Positions 156 to 54,501 of a stretch of DNA of 64,000 nt are shown here, in pieces. The DNA comes from Candidatus Kapaibacterium sp. (GTDB taxonomy: Bacteria > Bacteroidota > Ignavibacteria > Kapaibacteriales > UBA2268), in assembly GCA_013414795.1 (NCBI GenBank), contig CP058732.1, positions 1,161,744 through 1,225,743 of the forward strand. The letters are read 5' to 3'. The notes under the pieces are model-generated. The model ran no database searches. It saw nothing but the letters and a program-made list of their open reading frames with translations, and was not told the DNA's origin. The position numbers and the translations under genes are program-made. The stretch's first letter is position 1. Every line of letters begins with the position of its first letter.

Positions 156-1055
156 CTAATTCCTCAAAAATAGCATTGCAATTCCAATAACTGCAAGAAA
201 GGCTCCAATTACTGATTGTATTGAAAAGCGTTCCTTTTGGATATATCTTGAAATAGGAAGCATAAAAATTGGTTGCAACGACATAATTGTGGCTGCAATT
301 CCAACATTGATGTGTGTAACTGCAATAAAACTAAATGTAATTCCAAGATAGGGTCCAATGATAGAACCAAGGACTAAAAGTCCAAGAGTTTTACCATTTG
401 CTAAATTTTTGAAAAAATCACCGTTTATTCTTTTCGAAAAGATACCAATCATAGTCAGCATTAAGAAAGCAGGAAAAATGCGATAAAAAGTAGCAGAGAG
501 AGGATGTATATCATTAATTTTGAATGCATATTTTGTTAGAATGAGCCCGCCAGCTTGACCAAGAGCAGAAAGGATTCCATAAATTATCCCTTTTGTTGTG
601 ATTTTGTATTGGGTAATTTCCTTACCATTTTGTTGGTATACAACGAGGGTGATTCCTGCAAAAGTTAAAATCATTCCAAAGATTCCAATGATTGAGATTA
701 CTTCACCAAAAGTAAAATAGGCGATAATTGCACCAAAAGCGGGATTGCTTGCCATCAGAATCATAGTGTACCTTGGTCCTATTTCTTTGAGAGATTTGAA
801 CAGGAATGTGTCTCCAAGTACCAAACCAACAAATGCACTTAAAATCAGATATATAAGTTGCAAGTTGGAAGTTTGCAATGAAATTCCAAATACTAAACAA
901 GTGAAAAACATTAGGATTGAGGAAATAAACAAGCGCGAGATGTTTAGATTGAAAGACCCTATCCTCTTCACAACAACAGAAAAGACGTAGGGGGAAAAAG
1001 ACCATAATATCGACGCTGCAAGAGCACTTAGTTCGCCTATAAGCATTTTTCGCAA
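156..1055 (-). CDS. EamA/DMT-superfamily transporter (10-TM membrane protein)
   Basis: 299 aa, highly hydrophobic throughout, with two repeated halves of multi-TM segments typical of EamA (RhaT-like) permeases. Confidence 0.7.
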   Translation of the reverse strand: MRKMLIGELSALAASILWSFSPYVFSVVVKRIGSFNLNISRLFISSILMFFTCLVFGISLQTSNLQLIYLILSAFVGLVLGDTFLFKSLKEIGPRYTMILMASNPAFGAIIAYFTFGEVISIIGIFGMILTFAGITLVVYQQNGKEITQYKITTKGIIYGILSALGQAGGLILTKYAFKINDIHPLSATFYRIFPAFLMLTMIGIFSKRINGDFFKNLANGKTLGLLVLGSIIGPYLGITFSFIAVTHINVGIAATIMSLQPIFMLPISRYIQKERFSIQSVIGAFLAVIGIAMLFLRN

Positions 1056-19846: not shown

Positions 19847-19861
19847 TAACCTCCTCGTTGT

Positions 19862-19906
19862 TTTTAAAACAAAAAAGGCTGCCACCCAAGGATTTGGATG
19901 GCAACC
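19862..19906 (-). terminator. rho-independent terminator after the upstream T9SS cargo gene (minus-strand orientation)
   Basis: On the minus strand GGUUGCCAUCCAAAUCCUUGGGUGGCAGCC can form a hairpin (with G-U pairs) followed by UUUUUUGUUUU. It sits in the 20-80 nt gap between the two tandem cargo genes. Confidence 0.5.
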
Positions 19907-28900: not shown

Positions 28901-30273
28901 GCATTGCAGAAATTCAATTTGATGGGGACGATTCATTCTTTGTTTGTTCCGATGGACGAAGAATTCCGCTTCGAAGCAAAGAAATTGATGTATTGATTCC
29001 ATCGATGGGGGACCTTGCCGCCCCTCTTTTCGCTGCAACACTGCGTGGTCTTGGATTCAACGCCAAACCGATGCCCGAAAGCAACCCAGAAATTTTGAAA
29101 CTTGCTCGTAGTGTTTCTACGGGGAAGGAATGCCTTCCGCTTCTTCTTCTGGTCGGTCATTTATTGAATTATATCGAAAATCTTTGGGATAGAAAACAAA
29201 AGATTGCCTACTTCATTGTCCAGGGAGCAGGAAATTGTCGTTTGGGACAATATCCAGTGTTCATTCGCAACTTGATTCGTGACCGCAAGATTCCCGACGT
29301 TGCCACACTTGTTTTGATGAACGAGGATGGTTTTGCTGGGCTTGGTAGCGATTTTGCACTTCGTGGTATACAAGCAATTATTGCAAGCGATGTTCTCGAT
29401 GATATTAGGAGTGCGATTCTTGCAAATGCTGTTAATCCAGAAGAAGGAATTGAAATTTTCCACCAGGAATATCAGAAATTACTTTTGGCATTTGAACATC
29501 AGCCTAAAAAAATTTACAAAGCCTTAAAAGATTTTGCACTGACAATAAGAAAGAAAGTTCCCTCGAAAGTTCCAATCCAAAAAGCCAAATATATTGCACT
29601 CGTTGGTGAAATTTATGTTCGCCGAGACCATTTTGCACATCGCTACTTAAATAAATATTTTGCTTCGAAAGGTTTTGTTTTGAAAGATGCCTACATTAGC
29701 GAATGGATTTTCTATGTGGATTATTTGTTGAAACTTAAATTGCTTGAACCAGATACCGATTTTCGCAAGAAATTGGAACGCTGGACACGTGTCCTTTTTA
29801 TGAGAATAGCCGAACACAAGATAAAGAAAAATTTAGCACTTTCTGGCTATTACGAATATTCAAGAACTCTTATCGAGCCAATATTAAATCACAGCAAGCA
29901 TTTGATTCCATTAGAATATAAAGGCGAACCAGGGCTCACATTGGGAATTGCTTTAAAAGATATTCTGGAGAAGTATTGCGGGGTTGTAAATGTTGGTCCA
30001 TTCGGTTGTATGCCAACCAGGTTAGCCGAAGCGGTAAGTGTTCCAGAAATGAAAGTGCAAAACAAAATTACAGCAAGGAAAATGAACAATCCAGCATTCG
30101 ATTTGCCACTGTTTGTCGATAGGGAAATGCCATTACCATTTTTGACAATAGAAAGCGATGGAAATCCTTATCCGCAAGTAATTGAAGCGAAATTGGAGTC
30201 CTTTGTATTAAAAGCCGAAAAAGTAGCTAATTTGATGGAAAAAATTAAAATGAATGGAAAATATAAAGGTTAA
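25954..30273 (+). CDS. 1439-aa fusion protein: two BadF/BadG/BcrA/BcrD-type ATPase (acyl-CoA dehydratase activase, HgdC-like) domains followed by a 2-hydroxyacyl-CoA dehydratase (HgdB/D-component-like) region
   Basis: The first ASKHA ATPase domain has N-terminal FGVCIGASTITFVEI. The second has CIVGLDVGSTTTKGVVL...IFEIGGQDAKYTY...FMQGGVCYNRAIPVAMAGLVGKKIIVPPEPGLMGAFGVAL. The C-terminal ~850 aa have repeated dehydratase-subunit-like halves with conserved Cys (FSCGPDS, GAGNCRLGQY, GPFGCMP). Confidence 0.75.
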   Translation: MNRYFGVCIGASTITFVEISSNSKDKWEIEQVHSFQHNGLPRQVFTEKLKLLNPKKFPTVVTGRKIRNVLKLPTISEVEAVETAFKSLFSNKSDFKAISSLGSETFIVYVLDKNGNIVDVVTRNQCASGTGEFFLQQLKRMNINIDELHKFQNNVTPFKVSGRCSVFCKSDCTHALNKGVPKEEVLAGLAMMMADKVEELLHKVDKGKILLIGGVTQNKLVLKYLIEKEYDVVIPEEATYFEALGAAIFCLQNNVHSNFDFDNLFSNHTSSFIFHKPLSEYKHLVEFKAFERGKAKDGDVCIVGLDVGSTTTKGVVLRVDDCKILASSYIYTHGEPIKAARKVYAELAEQIGSTKIKIIGLGTTGSGRQVTGLHALTKGVFNEIIAHATAAIYFDPNVDTIFEIGGQDAKYTYLVNRVPADYAMNEACSAGTGSFIEESAFESLGIKTHEIEKIAFQSKNPPNFSDQCAAFISSDIKTAQNENIPREDIVAGLVYSVCLNYINRVKGNRQIGNVVFMQGGVCYNRAIPVAMAGLVGKKIIVPPEPGLMGAFGVALQVKEKIELGLLEPQEFSLEELAQREVTYKTPFICMGGKEKCDLRCQINRIVVNGKTYPFGGACNKFYNLLYNKNYNIEEYDFIAKRNSLLYEYSRQEERKDSLGTIGINLSYHTFTILPLLSTFFNGIGYKVVLPDEPDPRGFDREHTSFCFPAQISLCMFQNLLDKNPDYYFLPEIFEMWTAEDEPQRLDFNSSCVFVSGEPFYLKQAFKDYNISDKIISLYLNFANGFDKEKGKFVEIAKKLGVDKEIAEKAFNDAIEKQMQFFNRLEEEGAKFLDFLKENPDKFAVVLVGRPYNSFTSFTNKGIPQKFASRGVYIIPYEFLSFKNYKLDESQFWEAGKKILKTAKAIRDNEQLFPVYITNFSCGPDSMLIPQFRKIIGTRPSLTLELDQHTADAGINTRIDAFLDIVDNFRAVKNQIKHKAGEFRIAEIQFDGDDSFFVCSDGRRIPLRSKEIDVLIPSMGDLAAPLFAATLRGLGFNAKPMPESNPEILKLARSVSTGKECLPLLLLVGHLLNYIENLWDRKQKIAYFIVQGAGNCRLGQYPVFIRNLIRDRKIPDVATLVLMNEDGFAGLGSDFALRGIQAIIASDVLDDIRSAILANAVNPEEGIEIFHQEYQKLLLAFEHQPKKIYKALKDFALTIRKKVPSKVPIQKAKYIALVGEIYVRRDHFAHRYLNKYFASKGFVLKDAYISEWIFYVDYLLKLKLLEPDTDFRKKLERWTRVLFMRIAEHKIKKNLALSGYYEYSRTLIEPILNHSKHLIPLEYKGEPGLTLGIALKDILEKYCGVVNVGPFGCMPTRLAEAVSVPEMKVQNKITARKMNNPAFDLPLFVDREMPLPFLTIESDGNPYPQVIEAKLESFVLKAEKVANLMEKIKMNGKYKG

Positions 30274-41943: not shown

Positions 41944-43491
41944 CTAACACTTATGCAAGTTTCTATGCATTATTCTTCTGGATTCGATTAGTCTTTCCTC
42001 CTCGGGCAATGAAATTAAGCGAGAGTTCAAATCTTTGTCGTTTTCGGAAAGGAGAATCTTTGCATAGTAGTCGATAACTTTTGGTGGAAAAATGCCATCC
42101 CGTTCGTAATGATGTCGCTTTTGAAGAAGTTTCTCCGCAGATTCCACGCAACTTTTGCCAAGCACTTCCAAATCCTTTTGTAATGAATTTGGGTCATCCG
42201 TAACTTTGTAATGTTCAGCCAGTTGCAAAGAACGTTGTGGATTGCTCAATCCCCATTCTATTGCTAAAATTAAGCCAGAAAGTATAAGATGTATTAAAGC
42301 ACTACCATCTGGACTTCTAAATTCAATTGTTTGACGGTTGTCTTCATATTCCAACGTTTCGGTTTCTTGTGGATTTATTTTTTTTGCAAGGTTATTTGCT
42401 TTCGTCCAAGCCAAAGGAATTCTAATGAGCGAACTTCTATTCGACGGACTCCAACAAACTTTTGTTGGTGCTTCTTGACCTGGGACTAGGCGGAGGTAGG
42501 AAGCAGCGACTGTATTACCAAATGCAGTTAGGCTTGGTGCATAGTGGCAAAGTCCACCGATAGCCATCAAAGCCTCTTGGGATAAATTACCGCTTGGGTC
42601 TAATAGTATGTTTTTGCCATTCTTTGTCAAAGCAAGATGGAAATGCAGACCATTGCCAGCGTGTCCTGGGTCGATTTTTGGGAAAAATGTTGCAATGGAA
42701 TTGTATTGGTATGCAACGTTTCGAATAATCCAGGTTGAAAGAACAAGGTCGTAGGCAAGTTCTTCAATATCTGTTAAGTGAAATTCAATTTCAACTTGTT
42801 CTGCAGATTTTCCGCTCAATTCGGGAATTTCGCTCTGTATATTTTCAATGTAACCAACTTCGTTGTGAGAGTATTTTATTGAATTTGTAATCTTTGCAAT
42901 AATTGAGGCAATTTCGCTGACGATATGCGTTGTTTTCGCAAAGGGCGGACTGCTATGGTAACCTTGTTGTTTGCCCAAAATATACATTCTTTTGGGCATA
43001 TCGTAAATTAGATAGAATTCCAATTCCCCCAAGGCTTTTAAATTCAAACCAGTTTTGGATTTGAAATATTCATTTGCCCTTGCAAGAATGTTGTCTGGAG
43101 TGAAATTTGCTGGAATTCCATCTTTATCAAAAAAGCGACAGAAGAAATCCAAACTTTTGTTGTCAAATGGATTAATAAATGCACTTTTGTAAATTGGAAC
43201 GACATAGAGGTCGGAAGAACCAACTTCGACAATTCCCTTGAACAAAGAGGAGCCATCAACACGTTCACCGTCGGCAAGTACTGATTCAACTTGGAACTTG
43301 TTTTGTATTGGGATTTGCATTTGACGTGGCTTGCCGTCGGAGGCAACATAATGGAAAGTTATTCTTTCAAGTTGTAAAGTTTGGATAACTTTTAAAAAAT
43401 CTTTTCTTGTCCATTCATTTTTGGGTTTTCCAGTGATTGCTGATATTTGATTTTCTAAAACAAAATATAAATTTGTATTTTGCATAACCAT
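41944..43491 (-). CDS. glutamine synthetase family protein
   Basis: GS catalytic motifs GNGLHFHLAL and NRSSLIRIPL are present, with an N-terminal beta-grasp domain. At 515 aa its length is atypical. Confidence 0.7.
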   Translation of the reverse strand: MVMQNTNLYFVLENQISAITGKPKNEWTRKDFLKVIQTLQLERITFHYVASDGKPRQMQIPIQNKFQVESVLADGERVDGSSLFKGIVEVGSSDLYVVPIYKSAFINPFDNKSLDFFCRFFDKDGIPANFTPDNILARANEYFKSKTGLNLKALGELEFYLIYDMPKRMYILGKQQGYHSSPPFAKTTHIVSEIASIIAKITNSIKYSHNEVGYIENIQSEIPELSGKSAEQVEIEFHLTDIEELAYDLVLSTWIIRNVAYQYNSIATFFPKIDPGHAGNGLHFHLALTKNGKNILLDPSGNLSQEALMAIGGLCHYAPSLTAFGNTVAASYLRLVPGQEAPTKVCWSPSNRSSLIRIPLAWTKANNLAKKINPQETETLEYEDNRQTIEFRSPDGSALIHLILSGLILAIEWGLSNPQRSLQLAEHYKVTDDPNSLQKDLEVLGKSCVESAEKLLQKRHHYERDGIFPPKVIDYYAKILLSENDKDLNSRLISLPEEERLIESRRIMHRNLHKC

Positions 43492-43557
43492 TTAGAAACT
43501 TTTGTTCAACAAAAAAAGCAAGTTATGTAAAAAAAATAAAACAAAGGCTTATAATAA

Positions 43558-43926
43558 ATGGATTTGTTACAAATTCGTGAATATTGCCTTTCTAAACCTT
43601 TTGCTGTCGAGGATTTCCCTTTCGACGAAGAAACACTTGTCTTCAAAGTCTTTGGGAAAATGTTTGCCCTTGTTGATTTGTATTCAATCCCAGCGTGGAT
43701 GAATTTGAAAGTTCCTCCAGAGGATGTGGTTTACCTTGTAGAAAGGTATGACTTTATAAAACCAGGCTATCATATGAACAAAAAGTACTGGATTACTGTC
43801 CAAATCGTCGATAATATCTCGGACAATTTCTTAATGAATTTGATTGACACTTCGTATAACGAGGTGGTCAAAAAGTTGGCCAAATTTAGACAAAAGTTAA
43901 TCGAGGAAAGTTTGAAGAATGGTTAA
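43558..43926 (+). CDS. MmcQ/YjbR-family protein
   Basis: 122 aa. CLSKPFAVEDFPFDEETLVFKVFGKMFAL...KPGYHMNKKYWITV resembles YjbR/MmcQ proteins. Confidence 0.6.
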   Translation: MDLLQIREYCLSKPFAVEDFPFDEETLVFKVFGKMFALVDLYSIPAWMNLKVPPEDVVYLVERYDFIKPGYHMNKKYWITVQIVDNISDNFLMNLIDTSYNEVVKKLAKFRQKLIEESLKNG

Positions 43927-44929
43927 TCAAAGCGAAAGAGAATATTTAGCAGAAAAAATAAAAGAACATTTGGGCTGGAAGGTTAATCCTCTGCGAATTA
44001 AAATATTTACAGATACATCTGATTGGATGCGAATTGCCAGAGGAGACATTATTAGATTGAACTGTGGCGACTATCTTGTAAAGGGCAATATGCGAGAGCC
44101 AAGGTTTGGAATTGATGACCAGCCGAAATATTGGGTTTTCAATGCAATTGATTTAAAAGATAATTCAGAGAAAATAATTAAAACGGTATTTCACGAGGAA
44201 TTTTATGCTCATATTGGATTTTTAAGGATTCGTTGCTACCGAAACCCCGAAAAAGAAGGCGAAGTTCTGAAAATCGTTCAAGGGGACAAAAGATTTATGC
44301 AAGGATTTGTGTGTTTTGATGAAAAGGGCAATGCTGTGCGAATAATTGATTTCATCAAAGGTACCTCCTTTTTTAATTTTGTTCCAATGATAAATAAGAA
44401 CCACGAGGAGTATTTCTTCGAGGATTTGCCATATATTCTTTGGAAATTGAAAGAATCGTTCGAAGCGATTAATTTTTTGCACGAACACAAACTGTGTCAC
44501 GGCGATATACGAAACGACCATATTATAGTTGAAACCGAAACTGGGCTTTATCGTTGGATTGACTTTGACCTTATGCAAGATGTTTCCGACTTCGACCTTT
44601 GGAGTTGTGGTAATATTGTTTCTTACGCTGTTGCCAAGGGTTTGAAAACATTCGACCAAGTGCTTAAAGGCAATGAGTTTCCAAATGAAGTTAAATTAAG
44701 TTTGACCGCGGAGGATGCCTCGGCATTTTACAATTATCGAATTATGAATCTTAAAAAGTTATATCCTTATATCCCAATAAAATTGAACAAAATACTTCTT
44801 CATTTTACGATGAAGCCTATTGCTTTTTACAACAATATCCGTGAATTTTTGGAGGATTACACGGAAATGCTCGAAACAGAATTTCCAATAAAGGATAAAA
44901 CAAATATTGTTAAAAGAGATGAGAAATGA
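43919..44929 (+). CDS. protein-kinase-like fold protein of uncertain activity
   Basis: The catalytic-loop-like motif LCHGDIRNDHIIV and a DFG-like WIDFDL are present. It overlaps the upstream gene by 8 nt and the downstream HK start by ATGA. Confidence 0.5.
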   Translation: MVNQSEREYLAEKIKEHLGWKVNPLRIKIFTDTSDWMRIARGDIIRLNCGDYLVKGNMREPRFGIDDQPKYWVFNAIDLKDNSEKIIKTVFHEEFYAHIGFLRIRCYRNPEKEGEVLKIVQGDKRFMQGFVCFDEKGNAVRIIDFIKGTSFFNFVPMINKNHEEYFFEDLPYILWKLKESFEAINFLHEHKLCHGDIRNDHIIVETETGLYRWIDFDLMQDVSDFDLWSCGNIVSYAVAKGLKTFDQVLKGNEFPNEVKLSLTAEDASAFYNYRIMNLKKLYPYIPIKLNKILLHFTMKPIAFYNNIREFLEDYTEMLETEFPIKDKTNIVKRDEK

Positions 44930-46755
44930 ATGCAATTATCATCGGTGGTGGTAAAGGTTGCTATGCGATATTAAAGTTACTTCGAGAGAAGCCAATCAAG
45001 GAATTGAATTTGCAAGTGCTTGGTGTTGTCGATATCAATCCAGAAGCAGAAGGTTTGAAATATGCTAAAGAATTGGGTTTGAAAACATTTTCAAACTATA
45101 AAGAAGCATTGAATTCTTTGGATGTAGAGGTTGTAATTGAATTAACTGGTAACAACGAATTCGTGAAAAAATTAAAACAAGAGTTAAGCCCAGAAATAAA
45201 ATTAATAGAACACTCGATTGCTCATATTTTCTGGGATTTAATGTATGCACACGAGGAACTCGATAAAAAAATAGAGGATTTACAAAGGCTTGAAAAAGTT
45301 ATCGAAAACGATAATGTTTTCTTGAAGTCAATCTTCGATAGTTTTCAAGATTTAACAGTAGTTATGGATTTAGAACAGCGAATTACTCGGGCAAACAAAG
45401 CCTTTTGCGAATTTGTGGGTTTACCAGAAGAGAAAGTGATTGGGCAAAAATGTTATCATTTATTGGAGATTGCTGAAATAAATTGTGATAAAAAAGGTTT
45501 GGAAGAAATAATTAATTACATCAAAGAAACAAAAAAACCGCATACGATGGTTCATTACTCTGCACAGCCAAAAGAATCTTATTGGGAAGTAACTCGTTCT
45601 CCTATTTTTGATGTACAAGGCGAAGTGAAGTTTATTCTATCTAACTGGCATAGGATAACAGAACTTGTGTATTTAAAGCGGGAAGTTGAAACGCTTGAAC
45701 AAAAATTGAAGAGTTTTATTAATAATGCCCAAGACTGGATTAGTATGAAAAACCTTAATGGTGAATACATTCTTGTAAATCCAGTTATTGCAAAAGCATT
45801 TGGAAAGCAACCAGAGGACTTTATTGGGAAAAAACCAGAAGATGTTTTACCAATGAAAATTGCACAAACCGTGAAAGCACACGACAGCGAAGTTCTTCGC
45901 ACGGGGAAAGCAATCCTTTACGACGAAACTATTACGCTTAACGGGGAAGAACATTATTTTCGTATGCTTCGGTTTCCACTTACCGATTCCCAAGGTAAAA
46001 TCATCGGAACTTGTACGATTGGACGGGATGCAACGAACGAAATTCAATTAATGGAGAAATTGGTGCAAAGCGAAAAACTTGTTGCTCTTGGAAAACTTGC
46101 CGCAGGCGTTGCCCACGAAATCAATAATCCGCTTACTGGAATTCTTTCTTATGCAGAGAGTATTTCAGAAGAATTGGACAAGGACAATCCATTGCAAGAA
46201 GACATTGCAATTATTATTCGTGAAACGCTACGCTGTCGGGATATTGTTCGAAATCTCCTCGATTTTGCAAAGCAAAGCACACCCAAATTCGAAATAGTAA
46301 ATCCAAATTCAATTATTAAACAATCGTTAGATTTGATCAGCCGTTTACCACAGTTTAAGGATATTGAAATCGAAGTCCTTCTCGATGAAAAAGTTCCCCA
46401 GATAAAAGCCGATGCAAAGCAAATACAGCAAGTCATACTCAATTTCTTGATAAACGCTGCTGATGCTATGAAATACAAGGGAAAGATAACTATATCGACC
46501 GAATATTATCGCCAGCAAAAGAAGTGTATCATTTCGGTTGAGGATACTGGTCCTGGTATCCCAGAAAATCTAATGGACAAAATTTTCGAGCCATTTTTCT
46601 CGACCAAAAGTACAAGTGGTTTAGGACTGGCTGTGAGTTGGGGAATTATCGAGCGACACCACGGAACAATTGAGGTCGACACTGCACCATCGGGGGGTGC
46701 AATATTTAGGATACTTCTCCCAGCATATTTTGAAATTGTTGATAAATTGGAATAA
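44926..46755 (+). CDS. cytoplasmic sensor histidine kinase: N-terminal Rossmann (Gfo/Idh/MocA-like NAD(P)-binding) domain, two PAS domains, HisKA, HATPase_c
   Basis: N-terminal IIIGGGKGCYAILKLL...LQVLGVVDINPEAEGLKYAKELGL...SNYKEAL...VEVVIELTGNNEF. The H-box is VAHEINNPLTGI, and the ATP lid has DTGPGIP and GLGLAV. No TM segments. Confidence 0.85.
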   Translation: MNAIIIGGGKGCYAILKLLREKPIKELNLQVLGVVDINPEAEGLKYAKELGLKTFSNYKEALNSLDVEVVIELTGNNEFVKKLKQELSPEIKLIEHSIAHIFWDLMYAHEELDKKIEDLQRLEKVIENDNVFLKSIFDSFQDLTVVMDLEQRITRANKAFCEFVGLPEEKVIGQKCYHLLEIAEINCDKKGLEEIINYIKETKKPHTMVHYSAQPKESYWEVTRSPIFDVQGEVKFILSNWHRITELVYLKREVETLEQKLKSFINNAQDWISMKNLNGEYILVNPVIAKAFGKQPEDFIGKKPEDVLPMKIAQTVKAHDSEVLRTGKAILYDETITLNGEEHYFRMLRFPLTDSQGKIIGTCTIGRDATNEIQLMEKLVQSEKLVALGKLAAGVAHEINNPLTGILSYAESISEELDKDNPLQEDIAIIIRETLRCRDIVRNLLDFAKQSTPKFEIVNPNSIIKQSLDLISRLPQFKDIEIEVLLDEKVPQIKADAKQIQQVILNFLINAADAMKYKGKITISTEYYRQQKKCIISVEDTGPGIPENLMDKIFEPFFSTKSTSGLGLAVSWGIIERHHGTIEVDTAPSGGAIFRILLPAYFEIVDKLE

Positions 46756-46757
46756 AT

Positions 46758-47534
46758 ATGGAAAATAGTAAAATCAAAATTTTAGTTATAGACGATGAGC
46801 AAATTGTACTCGATAGTATAAAACGTCTTTTGAAAAAGGACGAAAATTATATTATCGAAACTGCACTTTCAGCAATGGAAGGTTTAGCAAAAGTTGATGA
46901 GTTCAAACCAAATGTCATTCTCACTGATTTGATGATGCCAGAAATTGATGGCTTGGAATTGCTGAAAAAAGTTAAAGAAAAGGACGAAAAGATTTTTGTG
47001 ATAATGATTACTGGCTATGCAACAATTAATACAGCACTTCAAGCGATGCAACTTGGGGCTTTCGACTACATTGCAAAGCCATTTACTCGTGAAGAGTTGA
47101 GACGAGTCATTGAAAGGGCTGCAAGTTTGGTTGAAGTGCAAAAAACTTCTCAAATTAAGTCTCCATTGCAAAATGAAATTATTGGAAATATTCAAGGAAT
47201 TGGTCAATATTCTTGGTTGATGATGAATGACGAAGGGCTTGTCGTTTTGGGTGTCGAAAGAGCTTTTCTTTATTCAGTGGGAAAAATACAAACTGTGTAT
47301 TTGCCATCTGCTGGGGACGAAATTAGGCAAGGTAGCGTTTTTTTCCAAATATTTTCTTCGGATTTGCGTACCCAATCGATTTATTCTCCTCTTTCGGGTA
47401 CTGTTGTCGAAGTAAATGAAAAAGTTTTGGCTAATCCAGAACTCGCAGCACTCGACCCTTATGGCGAAGGTTGGTTGATTAAAATAAAACCAAGCAACTT
47501 TGAAGATGATATGAAAACACTTGGATTACTTTGA
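46758..47534 (+). CDS. response regulator: CheY-like receiver domain fused to a glycine-cleavage-H-protein-like (lipoyl-domain fold) C-terminal domain lacking the lipoyl-lysine
   Basis: The receiver has KILVIDDE...ILTDLMMPEIDG...KPF. The C-terminus SIYSPLSGTVVEVNEKVLANPELAALDPYGEGWLIKIKPSNFEDDMKTL aligns with GcvH (...VKAASDIYAPVSGEVVEVN...SPELVNSDPYGEGWIFKIK), but Leu replaces the lipoylated Lys. Confidence 0.8.
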   Translation: MENSKIKILVIDDEQIVLDSIKRLLKKDENYIIETALSAMEGLAKVDEFKPNVILTDLMMPEIDGLELLKKVKEKDEKIFVIMITGYATINTALQAMQLGAFDYIAKPFTREELRRVIERAASLVEVQKTSQIKSPLQNEIIGNIQGIGQYSWLMMNDEGLVVLGVERAFLYSVGKIQTVYLPSAGDEIRQGSVFFQIFSSDLRTQSIYSPLSGTVVEVNEKVLANPELAALDPYGEGWLIKIKPSNFEDDMKTLGLL

Positions 47535-48585
47535 TTTTATGAAAGAAGCAATACTTTATGAAGTAATAGATGACAATACTAAAGAAGTTGAATGTAAACT
47601 TTGCAGTCATTATTGTAAGATAAAAAATAACTATGGTGGAATATGCCGAGTGCGTTTCAATCACAATGGAGTTCTCTATTCCTATACTTATGGAAAGGTA
47701 GATGGGGTTGCAATCGACCCAATCGAAAAAAAGCCATTCTATCATTTTAAACCAAAGAGCAGAGTCTTGTCGTTCGGAACCCCTGGATGCAATTTCAAAT
47801 GTGCAAATTGTCAAAATAGTTATCTTTCACAATCAATTAAATTGAAGCCAGACCATTTGCTTGTCCAAGAAACTATACCACCAGAGGAGATTGTAAGACT
47901 TGCAGAAAAGTATGATGTCGATGGAATTTCGTATACATATTCTGAACCAACAATTTTCTTTGAATATGCAAGGGATATCATCTTGAAATGCAAAGAAAAT
48001 CCAGGAACCAGGAATTTAGTACATCTTTTCGTTTCGAATGGATATTTCAGCAAGGAAATGCTACAAATTGTTGTCGAAGAACAACTACTTGATGCTATTA
48101 ATATAGACTTAAAATTTATTGACGACCAAAAATATTTAAAGATAACTGGTGGACATCTTAAGCCTGTTTTGGATAGTATTGAACGGGTATTTTCGGCAAA
48201 CATTCATATGGAGATAATCAATCTTGTCATTCCTGGAGAAAACGATACCGACGAGTCTTTCTCGAAAATTTCTGAATTTATTGCAAATTTGTCGAAAGAT
48301 ATTCCTTTGCATTTCAGCAGATTTTATCCTCAATACAAAATGACAACCAAGACGCCGACGCCCTATTCGACATTAATCCGTGCAAAGGAAATTGCGGAGT
48401 CCTACGGTTTAAACTTCGTTTATATTGGAAACACTGATATTCCAAATGCTGAAAATACATATTGTCCCAATTGCAAATTTTTAGTTGTTGAACGTGAAAG
48501 ATATTTAACAAATGTAAATTATTTTGTGGAAAATGGGAAAGCAAAATGTCCAAAATGTTTAGAAACATTGCCTATAGTTGTTTAG
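47521..48585 (+). CDS. AmmeMemoRadiSam-system-type radical SAM enzyme (PFL-activase-like)
   Basis: The N-terminal AILYEVIDDNTKEVECKLCSHYCKIKNNYGGICRVRFNHNGVLY has a Cys-rich zinc-ribbon-like segment. The radical SAM cluster motif GTPGCNFKCANCQNSYLS (Cx3Cx2C) is present. Confidence 0.8.
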   Translation: MDYFDFMKEAILYEVIDDNTKEVECKLCSHYCKIKNNYGGICRVRFNHNGVLYSYTYGKVDGVAIDPIEKKPFYHFKPKSRVLSFGTPGCNFKCANCQNSYLSQSIKLKPDHLLVQETIPPEEIVRLAEKYDVDGISYTYSEPTIFFEYARDIILKCKENPGTRNLVHLFVSNGYFSKEMLQIVVEEQLLDAINIDLKFIDDQKYLKITGGHLKPVLDSIERVFSANIHMEIINLVIPGENDTDESFSKISEFIANLSKDIPLHFSRFYPQYKMTTKTPTPYSTLIRAKEIAESYGLNFVYIGNTDIPNAENTYCPNCKFLVVERERYLTNVNYFVENGKAKCPKCLETLPIVV

Positions 48586-49733
48586 TGATTGTTCTGTTTT
48601 ACCTTTTGATGGTTAGTAAAAGCGGAACATTATATGCCCAATGGCCTGCGATGAAGACAGATGCAGATAGTCTTGTGCGGTTGGGTGCAGACTACATTTA
48701 CAATATGGAATTTGATAAAGCCGAACAGTGCTTCAAGCAAGTTATAGAAAAATATCCAGAACTTCCCGCTGGATATTTTTTGAATGCAATGGTGGATTGG
48801 TGGAAAATTGTTGCATTTCGCAATTCCCAAGAATTCGACAAGTCTTTTCTTGAAAAAATTGACCGAACAATCCAAGTTTGCGACAGAATACTCGATACTA
48901 ATGAATTCGAATTGAGTGCTTTGTTTTTCAAAGGCGGTGCGATTGGATATCGAGGTCGATATCACGCAATTCGTGAAAACTGGTTTCGTGCTGCCAACGA
49001 TGGTTATTCGGGTTTTAAAATATTGACGAAATGTCTTGAAATTGCCCCAAACAATTACGACATTATGCTTGGTACTGGTGTTTATAACTATTTCGCCGAG
49101 GTTCTTCCTTCGGAAAATCCCGCTTTAAAACCATTGATGCTTTTTCTTCCCAAAGGTGATAGAAAACTTGGAATATTACAACTTCAAGCCTCGGCAAAAT
49201 ATGCTCGATATGCAAATGTCGAGGCAAAATTGGTGTTGTTGCAAATTTTTAACGATTTCGAAAAAGATTACTATTCTGCATACACAATTGCAAAGGAATT
49301 AGTTGAGAAATATCCCAACAATCCAGTTTTTCAGCGATATTATGGTAGGACGCTTGTCTCGCTCTACTATCTTGACGAATGGGAAAAGCATTGGAAAATG
49401 ATACTTAATTGGTACGAGCAAAAAAAGCCTGGTTTCGATGTTGCAACTGCCAGAGAGGCAATGTATTACATTGGCAGTGCTTTGTTTGAACAAGGACGCT
49501 ACGACGAGGCTTTATCATATTTCTACAAATGTGATGAATTTTCACGTAAGTTAGATAAGAATGGTCCTTCGGCTTTTATGATTTACCTAAACTTAAAAGT
49601 TGGAAAAATATACGACCTTCAAGGTAAACGAAATTATGCAATTATGCAATATAACAAGGTCCTTTCTTGGAAAAATTATCGAGATTCCCACGAACAAGCA
49701 AAAAAATACCTCCAAACTCCATATACAAGGTAG
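48555..49733 (+). CDS. secreted TPR-repeat protein
   Basis: A signal-like N-terminus (IAYSCLVIVLFYLLMVSKSGTLYAQ) is followed by TPR-like helical repeats. The start is uncertain (48546, 48555 or 48609), and it overlaps the rSAM gene end. Confidence 0.6.
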   Translation: MFRNIAYSCLVIVLFYLLMVSKSGTLYAQWPAMKTDADSLVRLGADYIYNMEFDKAEQCFKQVIEKYPELPAGYFLNAMVDWWKIVAFRNSQEFDKSFLEKIDRTIQVCDRILDTNEFELSALFFKGGAIGYRGRYHAIRENWFRAANDGYSGFKILTKCLEIAPNNYDIMLGTGVYNYFAEVLPSENPALKPLMLFLPKGDRKLGILQLQASAKYARYANVEAKLVLLQIFNDFEKDYYSAYTIAKELVEKYPNNPVFQRYYGRTLVSLYYLDEWEKHWKMILNWYEQKKPGFDVATAREAMYYIGSALFEQGRYDEALSYFYKCDEFSRKLDKNGPSAFMIYLNLKVGKIYDLQGKRNYAIMQYNKVLSWKNYRDSHEQAKKYLQTPYTR

Positions 49734-49770
49734 ATTTTTTAATTTTGAAATTTTGCAAAATTTTTTTCCG

Positions 49771-51012
49771 ATGGTAAGACTTTTACTATGCTTTTTGATT
49801 TTGTGTATTAGTTGCACGACCGAAGTTTTTCCCAAGGTTGGCTACCAACAAAAAATTCTTCTTGGTATTGATGTTTTAGTTCGTGATGATTTTAAAATAC
49901 TTTATGGGAAAAGAGTTGGGTTGCTAACGAATTCGGCAAGCCGTTCTTCATCGAAAAAAATGACTGTGGAGTATTTCGTAAACAATCCCAAATTTACTTT
50001 AAATGCAATTTTCACCCCAGAACACGGATTTTTTACAACCGTTCCTGCTGGCAAGTATGTTCCCGACGATAGCCTATATGGGGTTCCAATCTTTTCGCTT
50101 TATGGAAATAATCGAAAACCAACTCCCTACCAAATGTCTCTGGTTGATATCGTTGTTGTAGATTTGCAAGATATAGGAGTACGTTCCTATACTTTTATTA
50201 GCACTCTTTACAAAGTTATGGAAGCCTGTGCAGATGCAAATATTCCGCTCGTTATACTGGACCGTCCCAATCCGCTTGGTGGAAATCTTGTTGATGGCAA
50301 TGTGCTTGAACCGCAATGGGCTTCATTTGTGGGAATTGTTCCAATTCCATATTTGCACGGCTGTACTATTGGCGAAATTGCTTTTATGATAAATGAAGAA
50401 GGCTGGCTGAAATCCAACGGAGTAACGAAAAAGTGTGATTTAACTATTGTTAAGATGGAAAACTGGAAGCGACAAATGAATTGGGAGGATACCAATTTGG
50501 AATGGTTCCAAACTTCACCCAACATAAAGAGTGTTGACGCTATACGTGGGATTGCTATGTTTGGTGTGCTTGGCGAGTTGGGACTTTTTAATTTAGGTGT
50601 TGGTACTGACTTGCCCTTCCAAGTTTTTTCAATTCGAAATGTGAATGTGAAAAAGTTGGAAAAGTTAGTTTCTGAATTAAAGTTTGATGGCGTTGCTTTC
50701 ATAAATAAAGAGAAACAAAAGCATTTAGAAAAAGAGCACAATAGTTTTTTGATTAAGTTTGCAAAAAACAAAGAATGTAAATACTATACTTTTGGTATGA
50801 CTTTGTTGTTTGAAATTCGGAAGGCTTTTCCACATTTATTTTCTTATGAACGACTTAAGTCGAGAAGAATAGAAATGTTCAAAAAAGTAACTGGAACAAG
50901 CGTTTTGTTCGATAGTTTAATTCAAGGAGATGAAACCGAATACTTTAATTATTTAAACAAAGGATTGGATGAATTTTTAAAACTTCGCTCTAAATATCTA
51001 TTATATAAATAG
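49771..51012 (+). CDS. DUF1343-family protein (NamZ-like exo-beta-N-acetylmuramidase family)
   Basis: The signal or lipoprotein start is MVRLLLCFLILCISC. The family motifs are DIGVRSYTFISTL and LVILDRPNPLGG. The track ORF starts at 49600 inside the previous gene, so 49771 is preferred. Confidence 0.7.
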   Translation: MVRLLLCFLILCISCTTEVFPKVGYQQKILLGIDVLVRDDFKILYGKRVGLLTNSASRSSSKKMTVEYFVNNPKFTLNAIFTPEHGFFTTVPAGKYVPDDSLYGVPIFSLYGNNRKPTPYQMSLVDIVVVDLQDIGVRSYTFISTLYKVMEACADANIPLVILDRPNPLGGNLVDGNVLEPQWASFVGIVPIPYLHGCTIGEIAFMINEEGWLKSNGVTKKCDLTIVKMENWKRQMNWEDTNLEWFQTSPNIKSVDAIRGIAMFGVLGELGLFNLGVGTDLPFQVFSIRNVNVKKLEKLVSELKFDGVAFINKEKQKHLEKEHNSFLIKFAKNKECKYYTFGMTLLFEIRKAFPHLFSYERLKSRRIEMFKKVTGTSVLFDSLIQGDETEYFNYLNKGLDEFLKLRSKYLLYK

Positions 51013-51020
51013 GGATAGCA

Positions 51021-53174
51021 TTGGCTAAACTTTGGCAAGTTAGAAGGGTTCCGTTAAAAATTACAATTAACAAAATTGTTGAAAAAATTTACAATGCGTT
51101 TCATCCAAAAAGTGAACAAGATTTTTACAAAAAATACTTTGTAGATTTACAAAATTTAAGACCTTTTAAAAAACTCGAAACTGGTTATTTCGGAATAATA
51201 GATAAATCTTTGCTGGTTGAAAAGAAAGACTTGATTGAATTTCTGGGAAATCAAATTCTTGAACATAAATTTAATCTGCTTGGTACGGGTTGGATAAATC
51301 GTAACCACATTCAGAACTTTGAAGAAATAATAAATATTCTGCCAGAATTCTATCGAGAAAATTCACGGAAACTATTTGGCTATCTTAACGCAAGAAATTA
51401 CAAACCAATAAATTATTGGAATGACCCGAAAAGTGGTTACCTTTGGGAACCAAAGTTTTACAAAAAAATTAGTATTCTGCTCGGTTCCGATATAAAACAA
51501 CCTTGGGAACTTGGGAGAATGCAACATTTACCAATTTTGGCTTATTGCTATTTTCTTTTCCAAAACGATGTGGTTCACTCGAGGAAATTTTTAGATGAGT
51601 TCCAAAGCCAAATCATTGATTTCATTGCAACAAATCCTGTGGGATATACTGTTCAATGGCTTTCTCCAATGGATGTTGGCATTCGTGTTTCAAATTGGCT
51701 TTTTGCATACGATTTGTTTTCCGATTTGGGAGCCGAATTTGACCAGAACTTCTTGGATGTTTTTATGCAAAGTATTTTCGAACACATTGAATTTGTTCTG
51801 GATAATTTAGAATGGTCTGGTGGTCTTCGAGGTAACCACTATTTTGCAAACATAACTTCTTTGCTATTTGCTTGTTCTTACTTACCATTTAGTGACTATT
51901 CGACCTCAATTTTGGCATTTGCGATAAACGAACTTATATCCGAAACGCTTTATCAATTTCTTCCCGATGGCGGAAACTTCGAGGCTTCTACCTATTATCA
52001 TATCCAAGTTGTTGAAATGTTGCTTGTTTCTTTATACCTTATTCAATCTTATGAACGAAGCCGACTTTACGACTTGAACGAGTTTTTGAAATTGAAAGGG
52101 AATATAATATTTGGAAAAAGAAATTTTAAACCATCCAAATTTTCAATCGACTTGGTTAATAATCGAATTTTGTATCCAAATGAATTTTTAGAACGATTGT
52201 ATAGAGTTGTAAAATTCACTCATTCGATTTTCCAAACAAACGACAAATTCATTCAAATTGGCGATAGCGACAGTGGTTTTTTCCTTCGCCCGTATTACTT
52301 TTTTGATAATTTTAAAGTTAATGGCGAAATTTTCGAGGAAGTTCAAAGAAGACCTTTCCTCTACGAGTTAATAAATTCATTGAGTGAAAACAATTGCAAA
52401 GGTAAATCTCTTGTCTTGAAAAATTCATTGAAACATTCTTTCAATCTACCAAAAAGTGAAATAGTTATTTTTCGTAAAGTATTTCCCTTCGTTGATTTTG
52501 GTTTGTTTGTGATTAAATCTGCTGAATTCGAGTTGTTTCTCCGTTGTGGTAGCATTGGACAACAAGGAAAAGGTGGGCACTCCCACAACGACCAGTTGTC
52601 TTTTGTGTTGTGTGTAAAAGGAAAGGAATTTTTTGTTGACCCAGGAATGTACTGTTATACTTGTTCAGAAAAAGAGAGAAATAAATATCGTTCCGTGCAT
52701 ATGCATAACACGCTTGCTATTGAGGATGAAGAACAAAATCTATGGAAAGTTGGGGACACAGAAAATCTTTTTTGGATTTACAAACATCGCACAAAAGCTA
52801 AGGCATCTAAAATATTTGATGATTTAATCAAAATGCAACATTTTGCATATACAAAGCCACACATTAGAATAATATCTTATGAACCCGAGCGAATTGTTTT
52901 CACAGACACTTTAAATTCGAAAAAAGATAAAATTCTTTACTTCCATCTTCATCCAAATGTTGATATTACAATTAAGAATGATATTTTTATATTAACTAAT
53001 GAGCAAGTAACAATCAAACTTCGACTTCCAGAAGCAAGTTTTGAAGTAAAGAATTATGATTATTGCCCACAGTATGGGGTAAAATTAAGAGCAAGTAAGA
53101 TTGCAGTTCGTTCCAATGAGCGTTGTTTACAATGGTTTATTGATTTTGGCATTGAAAACGAAGAACCCACCTAA
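51021..53174 (+). CDS. heparinase II/III-like family protein (no signal peptide)
   Basis: 717 aa. The C-terminal region GSIGQQGKGGHSHNDQLSFVLCVKGKEFFVDPGMY resembles the heparinase II/III-like GHxHxD motif. The N-terminal part is alpha-helical toroid-like. Confidence 0.55.
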   Translation: MAKLWQVRRVPLKITINKIVEKIYNAFHPKSEQDFYKKYFVDLQNLRPFKKLETGYFGIIDKSLLVEKKDLIEFLGNQILEHKFNLLGTGWINRNHIQNFEEIINILPEFYRENSRKLFGYLNARNYKPINYWNDPKSGYLWEPKFYKKISILLGSDIKQPWELGRMQHLPILAYCYFLFQNDVVHSRKFLDEFQSQIIDFIATNPVGYTVQWLSPMDVGIRVSNWLFAYDLFSDLGAEFDQNFLDVFMQSIFEHIEFVLDNLEWSGGLRGNHYFANITSLLFACSYLPFSDYSTSILAFAINELISETLYQFLPDGGNFEASTYYHIQVVEMLLVSLYLIQSYERSRLYDLNEFLKLKGNIIFGKRNFKPSKFSIDLVNNRILYPNEFLERLYRVVKFTHSIFQTNDKFIQIGDSDSGFFLRPYYFFDNFKVNGEIFEEVQRRPFLYELINSLSENNCKGKSLVLKNSLKHSFNLPKSEIVIFRKVFPFVDFGLFVIKSAEFELFLRCGSIGQQGKGGHSHNDQLSFVLCVKGKEFFVDPGMYCYTCSEKERNKYRSVHMHNTLAIEDEEQNLWKVGDTENLFWIYKHRTKAKASKIFDDLIKMQHFAYTKPHIRIISYEPERIVFTDTLNSKKDKILYFHLHPNVDITIKNDIFILTNEQVTIKLRLPEASFEVKNYDYCPQYGVKLRASKIAVRSNERCLQWFIDFGIENEEPT

Positions 53175-53185
53175 ACGGTGGGTTC
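53163..53185. terminator. hairpin (possible bidirectional terminator) between convergent genes
   Basis: GAACCCACC-TAAAC-GGTGGGTTC perfect 9-bp stem that overlaps the stop codon of the heparinase-like gene. The U-tract is weak. Confidence 0.4.
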
Positions 53186-53214
53186 CTCTAATTGAGTGAA
53201 GTAATTTAAATTAA

Positions 53215-54501
53215 TTAAACCCAACCACGAAGTTTTACAGCCTCGGCAACTCTTGAAATAGCAATCATATATGCAGCGTCACGCATATAGACACCCTGCT
53301 TAATCGCAAGGTCCAGCACTGAATGATAGGCGCTTGTCATCTTTTGGTCGAGTTTGGTTAAAACTTCTTCCTTCGTCCAGAAATAGTTCATATTGCATTG
53401 AACTTGTTCGAAATAGGAACAGGTAACTCCACCAGCGTTGCACAAGAAGTCTGGAATGACGTGAATGTTCTTTGCCTTGAGTACCTCGTCTGCTTCTGGT
53501 GTTGTTGGACCATTGGCACCTTCGGCAATAATCTTTACAGTGGGTTTAATCAATTGCACTGTATCTTTGTTGATTTGGTTTTCCAAAGCGGCGGGGACCA
53601 AAATATCCACTTCTTGCTCAATCCAAGCATTGCCAGGAAGCAATTCAAAGCCAAGTTCTTTGGCTTTTTCTTTATCGATTTCCCCAAATTTGTTGGTAAT
53701 GCTCTTGAGTTGTTCGAAATTAATACCGTCTTTCTTTAGGAAGGTAATTGCCCGCTGTTCTTTTGGATCCCAGGAAGATACAGCAATGGCGGTTCCGCCC
53801 AACTTTGTATACAATTCAAGAGCGTATTGGCTAACATTACCAAAACCTTGAAAACTAGCCGTTGTCTTTTTAATATCAATTCCTAAATGTTTTAGGGCTT
53901 CGCGAACGGTGTAAATTACACCATAGCCTGTTGCCTCGGTACGCCCGAGAGAACCGCCCAGACCTAATGGCTTACCAGTGATGAATCCAGGGGCTTTAAT
54001 TCCAGTGATTTTCTCATATTCATCCAGCATCCAAATCATATGTTGTGCGTTGGTCATAACGTCTGGTGCTGGAACGTCTTGCAATGGTCCGACGTTTCGA
54101 GCAATTTGGCGAACCCAGCCACGGCAAATTAGTTCTTGCTCTCGGAGTGAAAGATGGTGTGGGTCGCAGACAACTCCGCCCTTGCCACCACCCAAGGGAA
54201 TGTCGACCACAGCAGTTTTCCAGGTCATCCACATTGCAAGAGCACGCACAGTATCGATTGTTTCGTTGGGGTGGAAACGAATTCCGCCTTTCGCTGGTCC
54301 GCGAGCATCACTGTGTTGAACGCGGAAGCCACGGAAGACTTTGTAAGTACCATCATCCATTCGAACTGGAATGTTGAATTGGTATTCTCGGTCTGGCCAA
54401 CGCAGTAGATCACGTGTTGCTTGGTCAAGACCTAACTTATCGGCAACAGCATCAAATTGTCGCTGTGCCATATGAAATGGATTGAAACCCTCTGTTGACA
54501 T
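53215..54501 (-). CDS. gdhA: NAD(P)-specific glutamate dehydrogenase
   Basis: 428 aa. The Glu/Leu/Phe/Val dehydrogenase signature region is GGGKGG...K, and the Rossmann motif is GFGNVSQ. GC content (~50 %) is conspicuously higher than in the neighbouring genes. Confidence 0.9.
   Translation of the reverse strand: MSTEGFNPFHMAQRQFDAVADKLGLDQATRDLLRWPDREYQFNIPVRMDDGTYKVFRGFRVQHSDARGPAKGGIRFHPNETIDTVRALAMWMTWKTAVVDIPLGGGKGGVVCDPHHLSLREQELICRGWVRQIARNVGPLQDVPAPDVMTNAQHMIWMLDEYEKITGIKAPGFITGKPLGLGGSLGRTEATGYGVIYTVREALKHLGIDIKKTTASFQGFGNVSQYALELYTKLGGTAIAVSSWDPKEQRAITFLKKDGINFEQLKSITNKFGEIDKEKAKELGFELLPGNAWIEQEVDILVPAALENQINKDTVQLIKPTVKIIAEGANGPTTPEADEVLKAKNIHVIPDFLCNAGGVTCSYFEQVQCNMNYFWTKEEVLTKLDQKMTSAYHSVLDLAIKQGVYMRDAAYMIAISRVAEAVKLRGWV

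Follow-up and report, generated by a model that had tools for sequence, protein, structure and literature searches.

Organization of the locus

The window, that is, the whole 64-kb stretch of DNA analysed, carries on its + strand a tight co-directional array in the order YjbR, kinase-like protein, PAS histidine kinase, REC-GcvH-like regulator, radical SAM enzyme (rSAM), TPR protein, NamZ and heparinase II/III-like protein. A YjbR/MmcQ family protein opens the array (43558..43926; PF04237, E = 3.6e-26) and is followed by a protein-kinase-like protein of 336 amino acids (43919..44929), which matches PF00069 weakly (E = 4e-5, under the gathering score) and whose stop overlaps the histidine kinase start by 4 nt. 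The sensor histidine kinase (44926..46755) has two PAS domains, HisKA, HATPase_c and a weak Rossmann-like N-terminus by Pfam and NCBIfam matches, with no transmembrane domain detected in it. Next comes the response regulator (46758..47534), a receiver (PF00072, E = 5.6e-31) joined to a GcvH-like domain (PF01597, E = 1e-21). Downstream of the rSAM gene lie the TPR protein (48546..49733; TPR Pfam matches), which is probably exported given its hydrophobic N-terminus, the NamZ-family (DUF1343) protein (49771..51012; PF07075 and PF20732 in precomputed gene calls) and, last in the array, the heparinase II/III-like protein (51021..53174; PF16889, PF07940). With the kinase and regulator just before the rSAM and the TPR gene just after it, the locus agrees with the first-pass annotation, which had placed the rSAM gene within a two-component-system operon.

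Spacing between the cassette genes ranges from -40 to +37 nt, and a terminator scan of 43300-53400 returned no strong + strand terminator in the array upstream of 53160. The sole strong hairpin in that interval, a GC-rich stem of 12 pairs (53160..53188), sits between the array and a convergent glutamate dehydrogenase gene and is the probable end of the array transcript. Sites found by a sigma-70 promoter scan were no more frequent than in shuffled sequence, the sigma-70 model itself being doubtful for a Bacteroidota-type organism.

The rSAM open reading frame spans 47521-48585 on the + strand (354 amino acids), where TTG 47521 is a mechanical ORF start only. The true start is likely ATG 47539, giving a predicted protein of 348 amino acids (47539..48585; supported by TIGR04337, the junction DNA and an AF2 model), because NCBI calls this start at the identical locus in GCA_037478895.1 and close homologues are 346-348 amino acids long. 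The DNA at the junction places this ATG 4 nt past the TGA stop of the regulator. At the other end, the TPR gene begins inside the rSAM gene, the two sharing 40 nt, and this overlap is kept in loci L005, L175 and L089 (31-40 nt).

Family membership of the radical SAM enzyme

Both cysteine motifs that had been reported for this frame are present. In numbering from the TTG start (47521), the N-terminal four-Cys cluster (Cys25, 28, 32 and 42; CKLCSHYC...GGICRVRFN; 47593..47646) is a predicted metal or auxiliary Fe-S site, metal binding being inferred, and the CX3CX2C radical SAM motif for the [4Fe-4S] cluster that cleaves SAM (Cys90, 94 and 97; GCNFKCANCQN; 47788..47811) is supported by the family alignment and by PF04055 (E = 6e-19). 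All seven of these cysteines occur in 164/164 aligned family members. A third cluster near the C-terminus, which the earlier account did not mention, is a CxxC...CxxC pair (Cys315, 318, 343 and 346; 48463..48558) that the family alignment also contains, its cysteines being kept in 143-162 of the 164 members; the model shapes it as a zinc-ribbon-like beta module with a beta-strand segment at 315-336. The window rSAM thus has 11 of the 11 family-conserved cysteines, i.e. all three clusters.

Among curated NCBIfam models, the best-scoring for the window rSAM is the AmmeMemoRadiSam model TIGR04337 (303.2 bits against a cutoff of 220), a match that cannot be put down to chance at E = 2e-90. The runner-up, the pyruvate formate-lyase activase (PflA) model TIGR02493, reaches 49.8 bits against a cutoff of 231.75, the PFLE_PFLC model 43.9 bits against 174.35, and the protein falls far under every cutoff of the BssD, YjjW, CutD, NrdG and MoaA models. 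The first-pass annotation had proposed this family from the motifs and suggested scoring it against PflA and other activases; with the AmmeMemoRadiSam model on top, no generic activase ahead of it and every cysteine cluster in place, the proposal holds. Close orthologs already bear the AmmeMemoRadiSam name at NCBI, and JGI calls some homologues 'pyruvate formate lyase activating enzyme'.

Conservation extends well beyond the cysteines. Of 66 columns that are at least 90% conserved among 37 partner-adjacent rSAMs (those flanked by AMMECR1 or Memo), the window rSAM retains 65, the sole exception being an isoleucine replaced by leucine. In a neighbour-joining tree the rSAMs of the cassette clade nest within an Ignavibacteria/Kapabacteria clade, which together with Micrarchaeota forms a distinct subclade. 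TIGR04337 scores follow this division: partner-flanked bacterial members reach 352-370 bits, and members of the subclade 273-311, comprising the clade of the window (291-311), solitary sister members (309-311) and an archaeal member that has Memo at a distance of 6 kb (273). Relative to the TIGR04337 family, a hypothetical equivalog, the window rSAM is therefore alike in its above-cutoff score, three cysteine clusters, length and architecture, but differs in the lower scores of its subclade, in the absence of AMMECR1 and Memo within 64 kb and in its setting in a clade-specific two-component operon. A diverged paralog with a new function is rejected by the tree and by the residue conservation. 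Judged by sequence, the protein clearly belongs to the AmmeMemoRadiSam type of radical SAM enzymes; it is a textbook representative of this known, functionally uncharacterised family and an ordinary ortholog of its lineage.

The predicted fold deserves separate mention. The AF2 model (pLDDT 94.5) has a PflA-like core, and its top Foldseek match is PflA 3cb8 (E = 2.4e-15, TM 0.78 on PflA, rmsd 2.3 A), so that the best superposition of the modelled core is with pyruvate formate-lyase activase holding a bound peptide substrate. PflA (PDB 3c8f/3cb8; TIGR02493) shares with the window rSAM the partial TIM-barrel radical SAM core and the CX3CX2C motif, and by analogy the window enzyme probably takes hydrogen from a protein-borne site as well. 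The two differ in that identity is 18%, the window rSAM lies under the PflA cutoff, and it adds an N-terminal four-Cys beta domain of about 75 residues and a C-terminal CxxC...CxxC module of about 45 residues. That the protein is really a generic PflA-like activase of a glycyl-radical enzyme, wrongly placed in the AmmeMemoRadiSam family, is scarcely credible. PflA is the closest solved structure by sequence (E = 1e-6) as well as by fold, and the JGI name points the same way; however, the alignment spans only residues 83-298, leaving the N- and C-terminal cysteine modules without a counterpart in PflA, and neither the Pfam-scanned window ORFs nor the precomputed gene calls hold a PFL-like or Gly_radical domain. 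The score of this protein on the PflA model, and on the remaining activase models, excludes a generic activase despite the similar fold.

The REC-GcvH-like regulator

The regulator beside the rSAM has the receiver-domain features of a two-component response regulator. In an alignment of 16 family members, the acidic pocket, phospho-acceptor Asp, Thr and Lys of its receiver (D12, D13, D57, T85 and K107) are invariant, and a histidine kinase is paired with the regulator in every locus examined. Its second domain aligns with canonical GcvH (PF01597; T. maritima 2ka7/1zko) over a stretch of some 97 residues that takes in the motifs SPLSG..VEVN and DPYGEGW, but is fused to a receiver and has lost the ESVKA lipoylation motif: the segment I-F-S-S-D-L-R replaces E-S-V-K-A, the lipoyl-lysine position is Asp202, and the resulting FSxDLR (F199, S200, D202, L203 and R204) is invariant across the same alignment. 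Because of this replacement, the domain presumably serves in signalling output or interaction and is no lipoyl carrier.

An rSAM gene adjoining a gene for a GcvH-fold domain recalls lipoyl synthase (LipA), which acts on octanoyl-GcvH. The resemblance goes no further, in that Asp stands at the lipoyl-lysine position throughout the GcvH-like family and LipA is only a distant structural match of the rSAM (rank 36, E = 7e-7); likewise, no lipoyl synthase model in NCBIfam matches the rSAM at E <= 0.01. Given that the lysine is lost across the whole family, the GcvH-like domain is rejected as a lipoyl-type substrate. Further, kinase and REC-GcvH-like pairs occur in Zixibacteria and other Bacteroidota without an rSAM. 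The suggestion in the first-pass annotation that this domain may be the rSAM substrate is weakened by the family-wide loss of the lysine and by the occurrence of the family without an rSAM in other phyla.

Conservation of the cassette

Within the Kapaibacterium-related clade, the six genes from histidine kinase through heparinase-like protein are retained down to 63% rSAM identity. The cassette is present at identities of 82% (L005), 77% (L008), 75% (L092) and 63% (L089), both flanks being different in L089, and is missing at 61%, 58%, 57% and 56%. The heparinase-like gene is kept in the cassette at 46-57% identity, and the NamZ gene is also conserved. In sister lineages the rSAM is not accompanied by the signalling genes; its neighbours there are an unrelated protein of about 510 amino acids plus DUF5723, or an acetyltransferase plus YjeF. 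The TPR protein is rejected as a partner conserved across the wider lineage, the downstream protein of about 510 amino acids in sisters being unrelated to it (BLASTP E = 1.5). The TPR protein had been offered as the other possible substrate of the rSAM, an idea that sits poorly with its not being a conserved partner outside the clade.

AMMECR1 and Memo partners

The absence of AMMECR1 and Memo from the 64-kb window, asserted in the first-pass annotation, stands. NCBIfam models the AMMECR1-like partner, system protein A, as TIGR04335 and the Memo-like partner, system protein B, as TIGR04336. Local HMMs built from NCBIfam-verified seeds, which gave 180-450 bits on positive controls, found neither in all six frames (best E 0.22), and no AMMECR1 or Memo domain came up when the mid-sized and large window ORFs were scanned against curated Pfam. 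Partners hidden in an unannotated frame of the window are rejected by the same searches.

Such absence is, however, what most relatives display. Among the 55 related loci whose flanks reach 5 kb or more on each side, 17 have a partner within 10 kb (31%; 11/36 in genomes and 6/19 in metagenomes), so that about 69% are without either. Even where a partner is found, both occur together in only 10 of 19 partner-positive genome loci, about half having one of the two. An rSAM without neighbouring partners is thus the commonest arrangement of the family. From the missing partners the first-pass annotation had concluded that one of two things must hold, uncoupling of the system or recruitment of the enzyme to another substrate; the unlinked state itself is real, but the premise that it is unusual fails, and the either/or inference is weakened accordingly, absent neighbours being usual in related loci.

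The closer lineage is uniform in this respect, with no partner within 10 kb at any of nine Ignavibacteria/Kapabacteria loci (L005-L008, L088, L089, L092, L172 and L173) and none adjacent to rSAMs of 56-63% identity in the loci examined and a metagenome scan. Memo does occur in the sister group, Micrarchaeota, where the genes bear the annotation system protein B and are often unlinked. A heterologous search with Memo from Micrarchaeota, the nearest partner-bearing lineage, gave named matches that were all archaeal, a negative that calibration shows to be uninformative.

Function of the unlinked enzyme

On balance the rSAM is probably an ordinary, vertically inherited TIGR04337 enzyme that works with AMMECR1-like and Memo-like partners encoded elsewhere, in which case sharing an operon need not mean sharing a substrate. 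The enzyme would cleave SAM reductively to a 5'-deoxyadenosyl radical, which, by analogy with PflA, may take hydrogen from a substrate that is protein-borne or held by a partner, the rSAM acting together with AMMECR1-like and Memo-like proteins from other sites in the genome. In the ancestor of the clade, the rSAM gene would have landed between an existing histidine kinase/REC-GcvH-like pair and a TPR-NamZ-heparinase-like block, and it is now probably co-transcribed with those genes; shared transcription of the rSAM and its neighbours need not imply a common substrate. Several observations count against this account. The TIGR04337 scores of the clade (291-311 bits) lie below those of partner-flanked bacterial members (352-370), none of the nine lineage loci has a partner nearby, and the tight conserved junctions of the rSAM gene with its two neighbours, regulator and TPR, are as compatible with a functional tie as with mere co-transcription.

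The same lower scores, the distinct subclade with Micrarchaeota and the want of a partner within 10 kb at the nine loci or in the 64-kb window would also make sense if Ignavibacteria/Kapabacteria had lost AMMECR1 and Memo altogether, leaving the rSAM to act alone or with unrelated partners on an ancestral or similar substrate. The finding of no bacterial Memo close to that of Micrarchaeota might be added, although the calibration leaves that negative uninformative. Such true uncoupling is nonetheless unlikely: scattered partner genes are the family norm, the sister Micrarchaeota have Memo, often unlinked, and an unchanged role is what the retention of 65 of 66 conserved columns points to. Less likely again is recruitment, in which the rSAM of this clade would modify, or be controlled by, one of two neighbours: the REC-GcvH-like regulator, or the TPR protein, to which it is translationally coupled. 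The 4-nt gap to the regulator, the conserved overlap of 31-40 nt between the rSAM and TPR genes and the survival of the six-gene block to 63% rSAM identity though both flanks changed are all consistent with it, and the PflA-like fold of the model suggests that the substrate is a protein or peptide. Yet Asp replaces the lipoyl-lysine, and the F-S-x-D-L-R segment is just as invariant in lineages without an adjacent rSAM; lipoyl synthase is only the 36th structural match; the rSAM has no clade-specific change at conserved positions; sister rSAMs adjoin quite different genes; and the TPR protein is apparently exported, while radical SAM enzymes are typically cytoplasmic. It is equally improbable that the rSAM was captured into the operon of the signalling pair and functionally tied to it, so that the phosphorylated GcvH-like domain would gate its activity, or the enzyme would modify that domain or the TPR protein, with AMMECR1 and Memo dispensed with. 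No evidence for a new rSAM substrate was found.

Implications

The AmmeMemoRadiSam system includes homologues of two human proteins, AMMECR1 and MEMO1, and a genomic context hinting at its substrate would be valuable, the more so as the searched literature contained only incidental mentions of the system and no biochemical function for it. Were the capture reading true, it would provide the first experimentally tractable handle on the role of this radical SAM family. The window locus offers no convincing substrate hint, because it holds a canonical enzyme in the commonest unlinked arrangement beside a signalling module that is independent elsewhere. The finding is largely ordinary, the rSAM family being known and the unlinked arrangement its commonest, and its practical lesson is that absent neighbours are no signal in scans for the AmmeMemoRadiSam rSAM family. 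Mildly useful by-products are the conserved clade-specific operon and the widespread family of REC-GcvH-like regulators, on which nothing was found in the searched literature. The Zixibacteria locus L090 also has a counterpart of the protein-kinase-like gene upstream of its histidine kinase-response regulator pair.

Family assignment and gene start

The radical SAM enzyme is a typical representative of an established family, and its interpretation as the product of an unusual event is unsupported. The first-pass annotation assigned it to the AmmeMemoRadiSam family on its cysteine motifs, and that call is borne out: the 354-aa open reading frame at 47521-48585 (+) carries the quoted motifs, and its best NCBIfam match is TIGR04337 (AmmeMemoRadiSam system radical SAM enzyme), at 303 bits against a cutoff of 220. 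A generic activase as best match is ruled out, the next model, PflA, reaching 49.8 against a cutoff of 231.75 and BssD, MoaA, YjjW and the general glycyl-radical activase subfamily lying far under theirs; the family assignment therefore stands. TIGR04337 scores are 352-370 bits for members whose genes demonstrably have those of system proteins A and B beside them, 309-311 for solitary members of the Ignavibacteria type, 291 for the most distant relative sharing the enzyme's gene cassette, and 273 for a Micrarchaeota member with a Memo gene 6 kb off. Among the 66 columns of a 164-member family alignment that are at least 90% conserved in the 37 partner-adjacent members, 65 are kept in the window enzyme, the sole exception being a conservative change of I to L. 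Its cysteines comprise an N-terminal four (25, 28, 32 and 42), the CX3CX2C cluster (90, 94 and 97) and a C-terminal CxxC...CxxC pair (315, 318, 343 and 346). Public annotation already gives close orthologs the AmmeMemoRadiSam name, and the exact protein is also found on several Logan-assembled metagenome contigs.

The start of the gene is better placed at ATG 47539. TTG 47521 is simply the first possible, mechanical start, and overlaps the preceding regulator gene by 14 nt; in the DNA of the junction the regulator's TGA stop (47532-47534) is followed by the ATG, which is also the start in the NCBI annotation of the identical locus in GCA_037478895.1 (348 aa). Close homologues are 346-348 aa long.

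Phylogenetic position and predicted chemistry

In a neighbour-joining tree the enzyme and its cassette-bearing relatives nest inside an Ignavibacteria/Kapabacteria clade that is sister to a Micrarchaeota pair. By this nesting it is the ordinary ortholog of its lineage; an extra, diverged copy is ruled out. Enzymes of the Ignavibacteria/Kapabacteria clade are 47-54% identical to those of Micrarchaeota (DPANN archaea; loci L010 and L093) versus ~43% to those of Bacteroidia, a greater closeness that suggests an old inter-domain transfer of the gene.

Modelling with AlphaFold2 from 43 homologues gave a confident structure (mean pLDDT 94.5, pTM 0.92). The best superposition of its core is on pyruvate formate-lyase activase with SAM and peptide substrate (3cb8; E = 2.4e-15, TM 0.78 normalised to PflA, rmsd 2.3 A), with NifB, viperin, SuiB and MoaA well behind and lipoyl synthase 36th among the structural matches; no member of the family has a solved structure. 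The modelled core fold resembles that of PflA, and the present enzyme adds two four-cysteine modules. It would be expected to cleave SAM reductively and to abstract hydrogen from a protein-borne or partner-held substrate. No description of the chemistry of the AmmeMemoRadiSam system was found in the literature searched, where the one pertinent lead was a citation of Burroughs et al. 2019 for 'Memo-Ammecr1 systems'.

Partner genes

Neighbour genes were clustered across 80 species-representative loci carrying relatives of the enzyme, which recovered AMMECR1-like and Memo-like genes, Memo-AMMECR1 fusions among them, verified by NCBIfam as TIGR04335 and TIGR04336. Local HMMs built from these verified seeds (positive controls, 180-450 bits) found no match to either partner when all 64 kb were searched in six frames (best E = 0.22), and Pfam scans of its mid-sized and large ORFs agreed, so the absence of both partners from the window is confirmed. 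The first reading took this absence to mean that the system had been uncoupled or the enzyme recruited to another substrate. The absence of neighbours stands; its reading as an unusual event does not, since, where the radical SAM gene has 5 kb or more of sequence on both sides, either partner lies within 10 kb at only ~31% of loci (11 of 36 genome loci, 6 of 19 metagenome loci). Both partners are present in only 10 of the 19 genome loci having any. Adjacency varies by clade, being seen in Anaerolineae, several Bacteroidia and others and lacking in most archaeal and many bacterial clades, and neither partner occurs within 10 kb at any of nine loci of the Ignavibacteria/Kapabacteria lineage. The enzyme is thus in the family's most frequent genomic state.

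Unlinked partners are probably present elsewhere in the genome, because dispersal is the norm for the family and the sister Micrarchaeota carry Memo genes; the same two points make true loss an unlikely account of the empty neighbourhood. In a search for a Kapabacteria Memo, with the Memo of Micrarchaeota L010 (from the closest lineage that has a partner) as query, the named hits among the top 120 were archaeal throughout. The identity floor of that list is ~41%, whereas by calibration radical SAM enzymes 45-50% identical have Memo partners averaging only 36%, so this result says nothing on whether such a Memo exists.

Memo-AMMECR1 fusions of 470-560 aa are common beside the radical SAM gene in Anaerolineae, Bacteroidales and others (L055 11135-12574; L039 9671-12595; L040, L045, L052, L056, L078). 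Enzymes from Anaerolineae are extended at the N-terminus by ~100 aa (total length 449 aa in L039).

Operon context and the signalling pair

Placement of the gene within a two-component-system operon, as originally proposed, is upheld. The array is co-directional throughout (+) with almost no intergenic space: YjbR (43558-43926) overlaps a protein-kinase-like gene (43919-44929) by 8 nt, which overlaps a PAS-PAS-HisKA-HATPase kinase gene (44926-46755) by 4 nt; a 2-nt gap precedes the REC+GcvH-like regulator (46758-47534) and a 4-nt gap the radical SAM gene (47539-48585), whose end is overlapped by 40 nt by a TPR protein gene (48546-49733); NamZ (49771-51012) follows after 37 nt and a heparinase II/III-like gene (51021-53174) closes the array after 8 nt. 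The only strong hairpin (53160-53188) lies 3' of this last gene. Relatives at 82%, 77%, 75% and 63% radical SAM identity keep the whole block that runs from the kinase to the heparinase-like gene, the last of them with both flanks different, and the overlap with the TPR gene (31-40 nt) is also retained. Tight spacing, a hairpin only at the array's end and conservation of block and overlap make co-transcription likely.

The adjacent GcvH-like domain had been put forward as a possible substrate; no positive support for any modification by the radical SAM enzyme emerged. In an alignment with T. maritima GcvH, the Asp of I-F-S-S-D-L-R in the regulator takes the place of the lipoyl-lysine in E-S-V-K-A; unlike GcvH, the regulator also has a receiver domain. 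Across 16 regulator-family members from several phyla, F199, S200, D202, L203 and R204 are invariant, FSxDLR thus replacing ESVKA, as are receiver residues D12, D13, D57, T85 and K107. This marks the domain as conserved and non-lipoylatable, and presumably as the output module of a receiver that is functional. The signature is identical with or without an adjacent radical SAM gene, which, together with Asp for lysine, argues against a lipoyl-synthase-like relationship. Nothing on this regulator family was found in the literature searched.

Nor is the linkage of the enzyme to the two-component system deep. Radical SAM neighbourhoods at 61%, 58%, 57% and 56% identity are unrelated to the window's, one having an acetyltransferase and YjeF. 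Conversely, the regulator belongs to a large family (1,432 matches at E <= 1e-5), and its relatives from Bacteroidota, Ignavibacteriota and Zixibacteria share 55-60% identity with it. A PAS histidine kinase of ~603-609 aa accompanies the regulator at each locus examined (L090, L091, L177-L181). At three such loci outside the clade, where the kinase has ~603-605 aa, no radical SAM gene lies beside the pair, and the kinase-like protein is also present in one. The enzyme without the pair and the pair without the enzyme indicate that the two are independent and came to lie side by side in a single clade. What remains of interest is an operon that is specific to this clade and includes a REC-GcvH-like signalling pair of wide distribution, and a small chance that the operon reflects a functional tie.

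Four lineages at 56-58% identity share a second arrangement that recurs around a solitary enzyme: downstream of the radical SAM gene come a protein of ~503-514 aa and then a DUF5723 protein (L007 11450-14430; L088 11267-14361; L172 8612-11646; L173 11136-14100). The middle protein has no Pfam match in these Ignavibacteria/Bacteroidota loci and no relation to the window's TPR protein.

The protein-kinase-like protein (~320-336 aa) gives only a weak PF00069 signal. Its gene lies directly upstream of the kinase-regulator pair both in the Kapabacteria clade (43919-44929 in the window; L005 6378-7388) and in Zixibacteria L090 (5192-6157), which makes the protein a possible third member of the signalling module, conserved along with the pair. 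The N-terminus of the histidine kinase (44926-45230) contains a GGGxG-type Rossmann-like segment with a weak GFO_IDH_MocA match (E = 0.004, under threshold); with no transmembrane domain detected, this hints that the protein may sense redox state or nucleotides in the cytoplasm. The L089 ortholog, at 508 aa, is ~100 aa shorter.

Other proteins of the window

A 1,439-aa protein (25954-30273) joins BcrAD/BadFG-type ATPase domains to DUF2229, a 'CoA enzyme activase' domain. It looks like a fused form of the activators that serve 2-hydroxyacyl-CoA dehydratase-like enzymes, no dehydratase being noted nearby. Three large Ig-like/ASH repeat-rich proteins (9938-14539, 18036-19904 and 19925-22729), one also with a VWA domain, end in Por_Secre_tail sorting domains, which mark them as type IX secretion cargo. 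A 1,677-aa protein (3627-8660) combines two GT4-type glycosyltransferase modules with a C-terminal TPR region.
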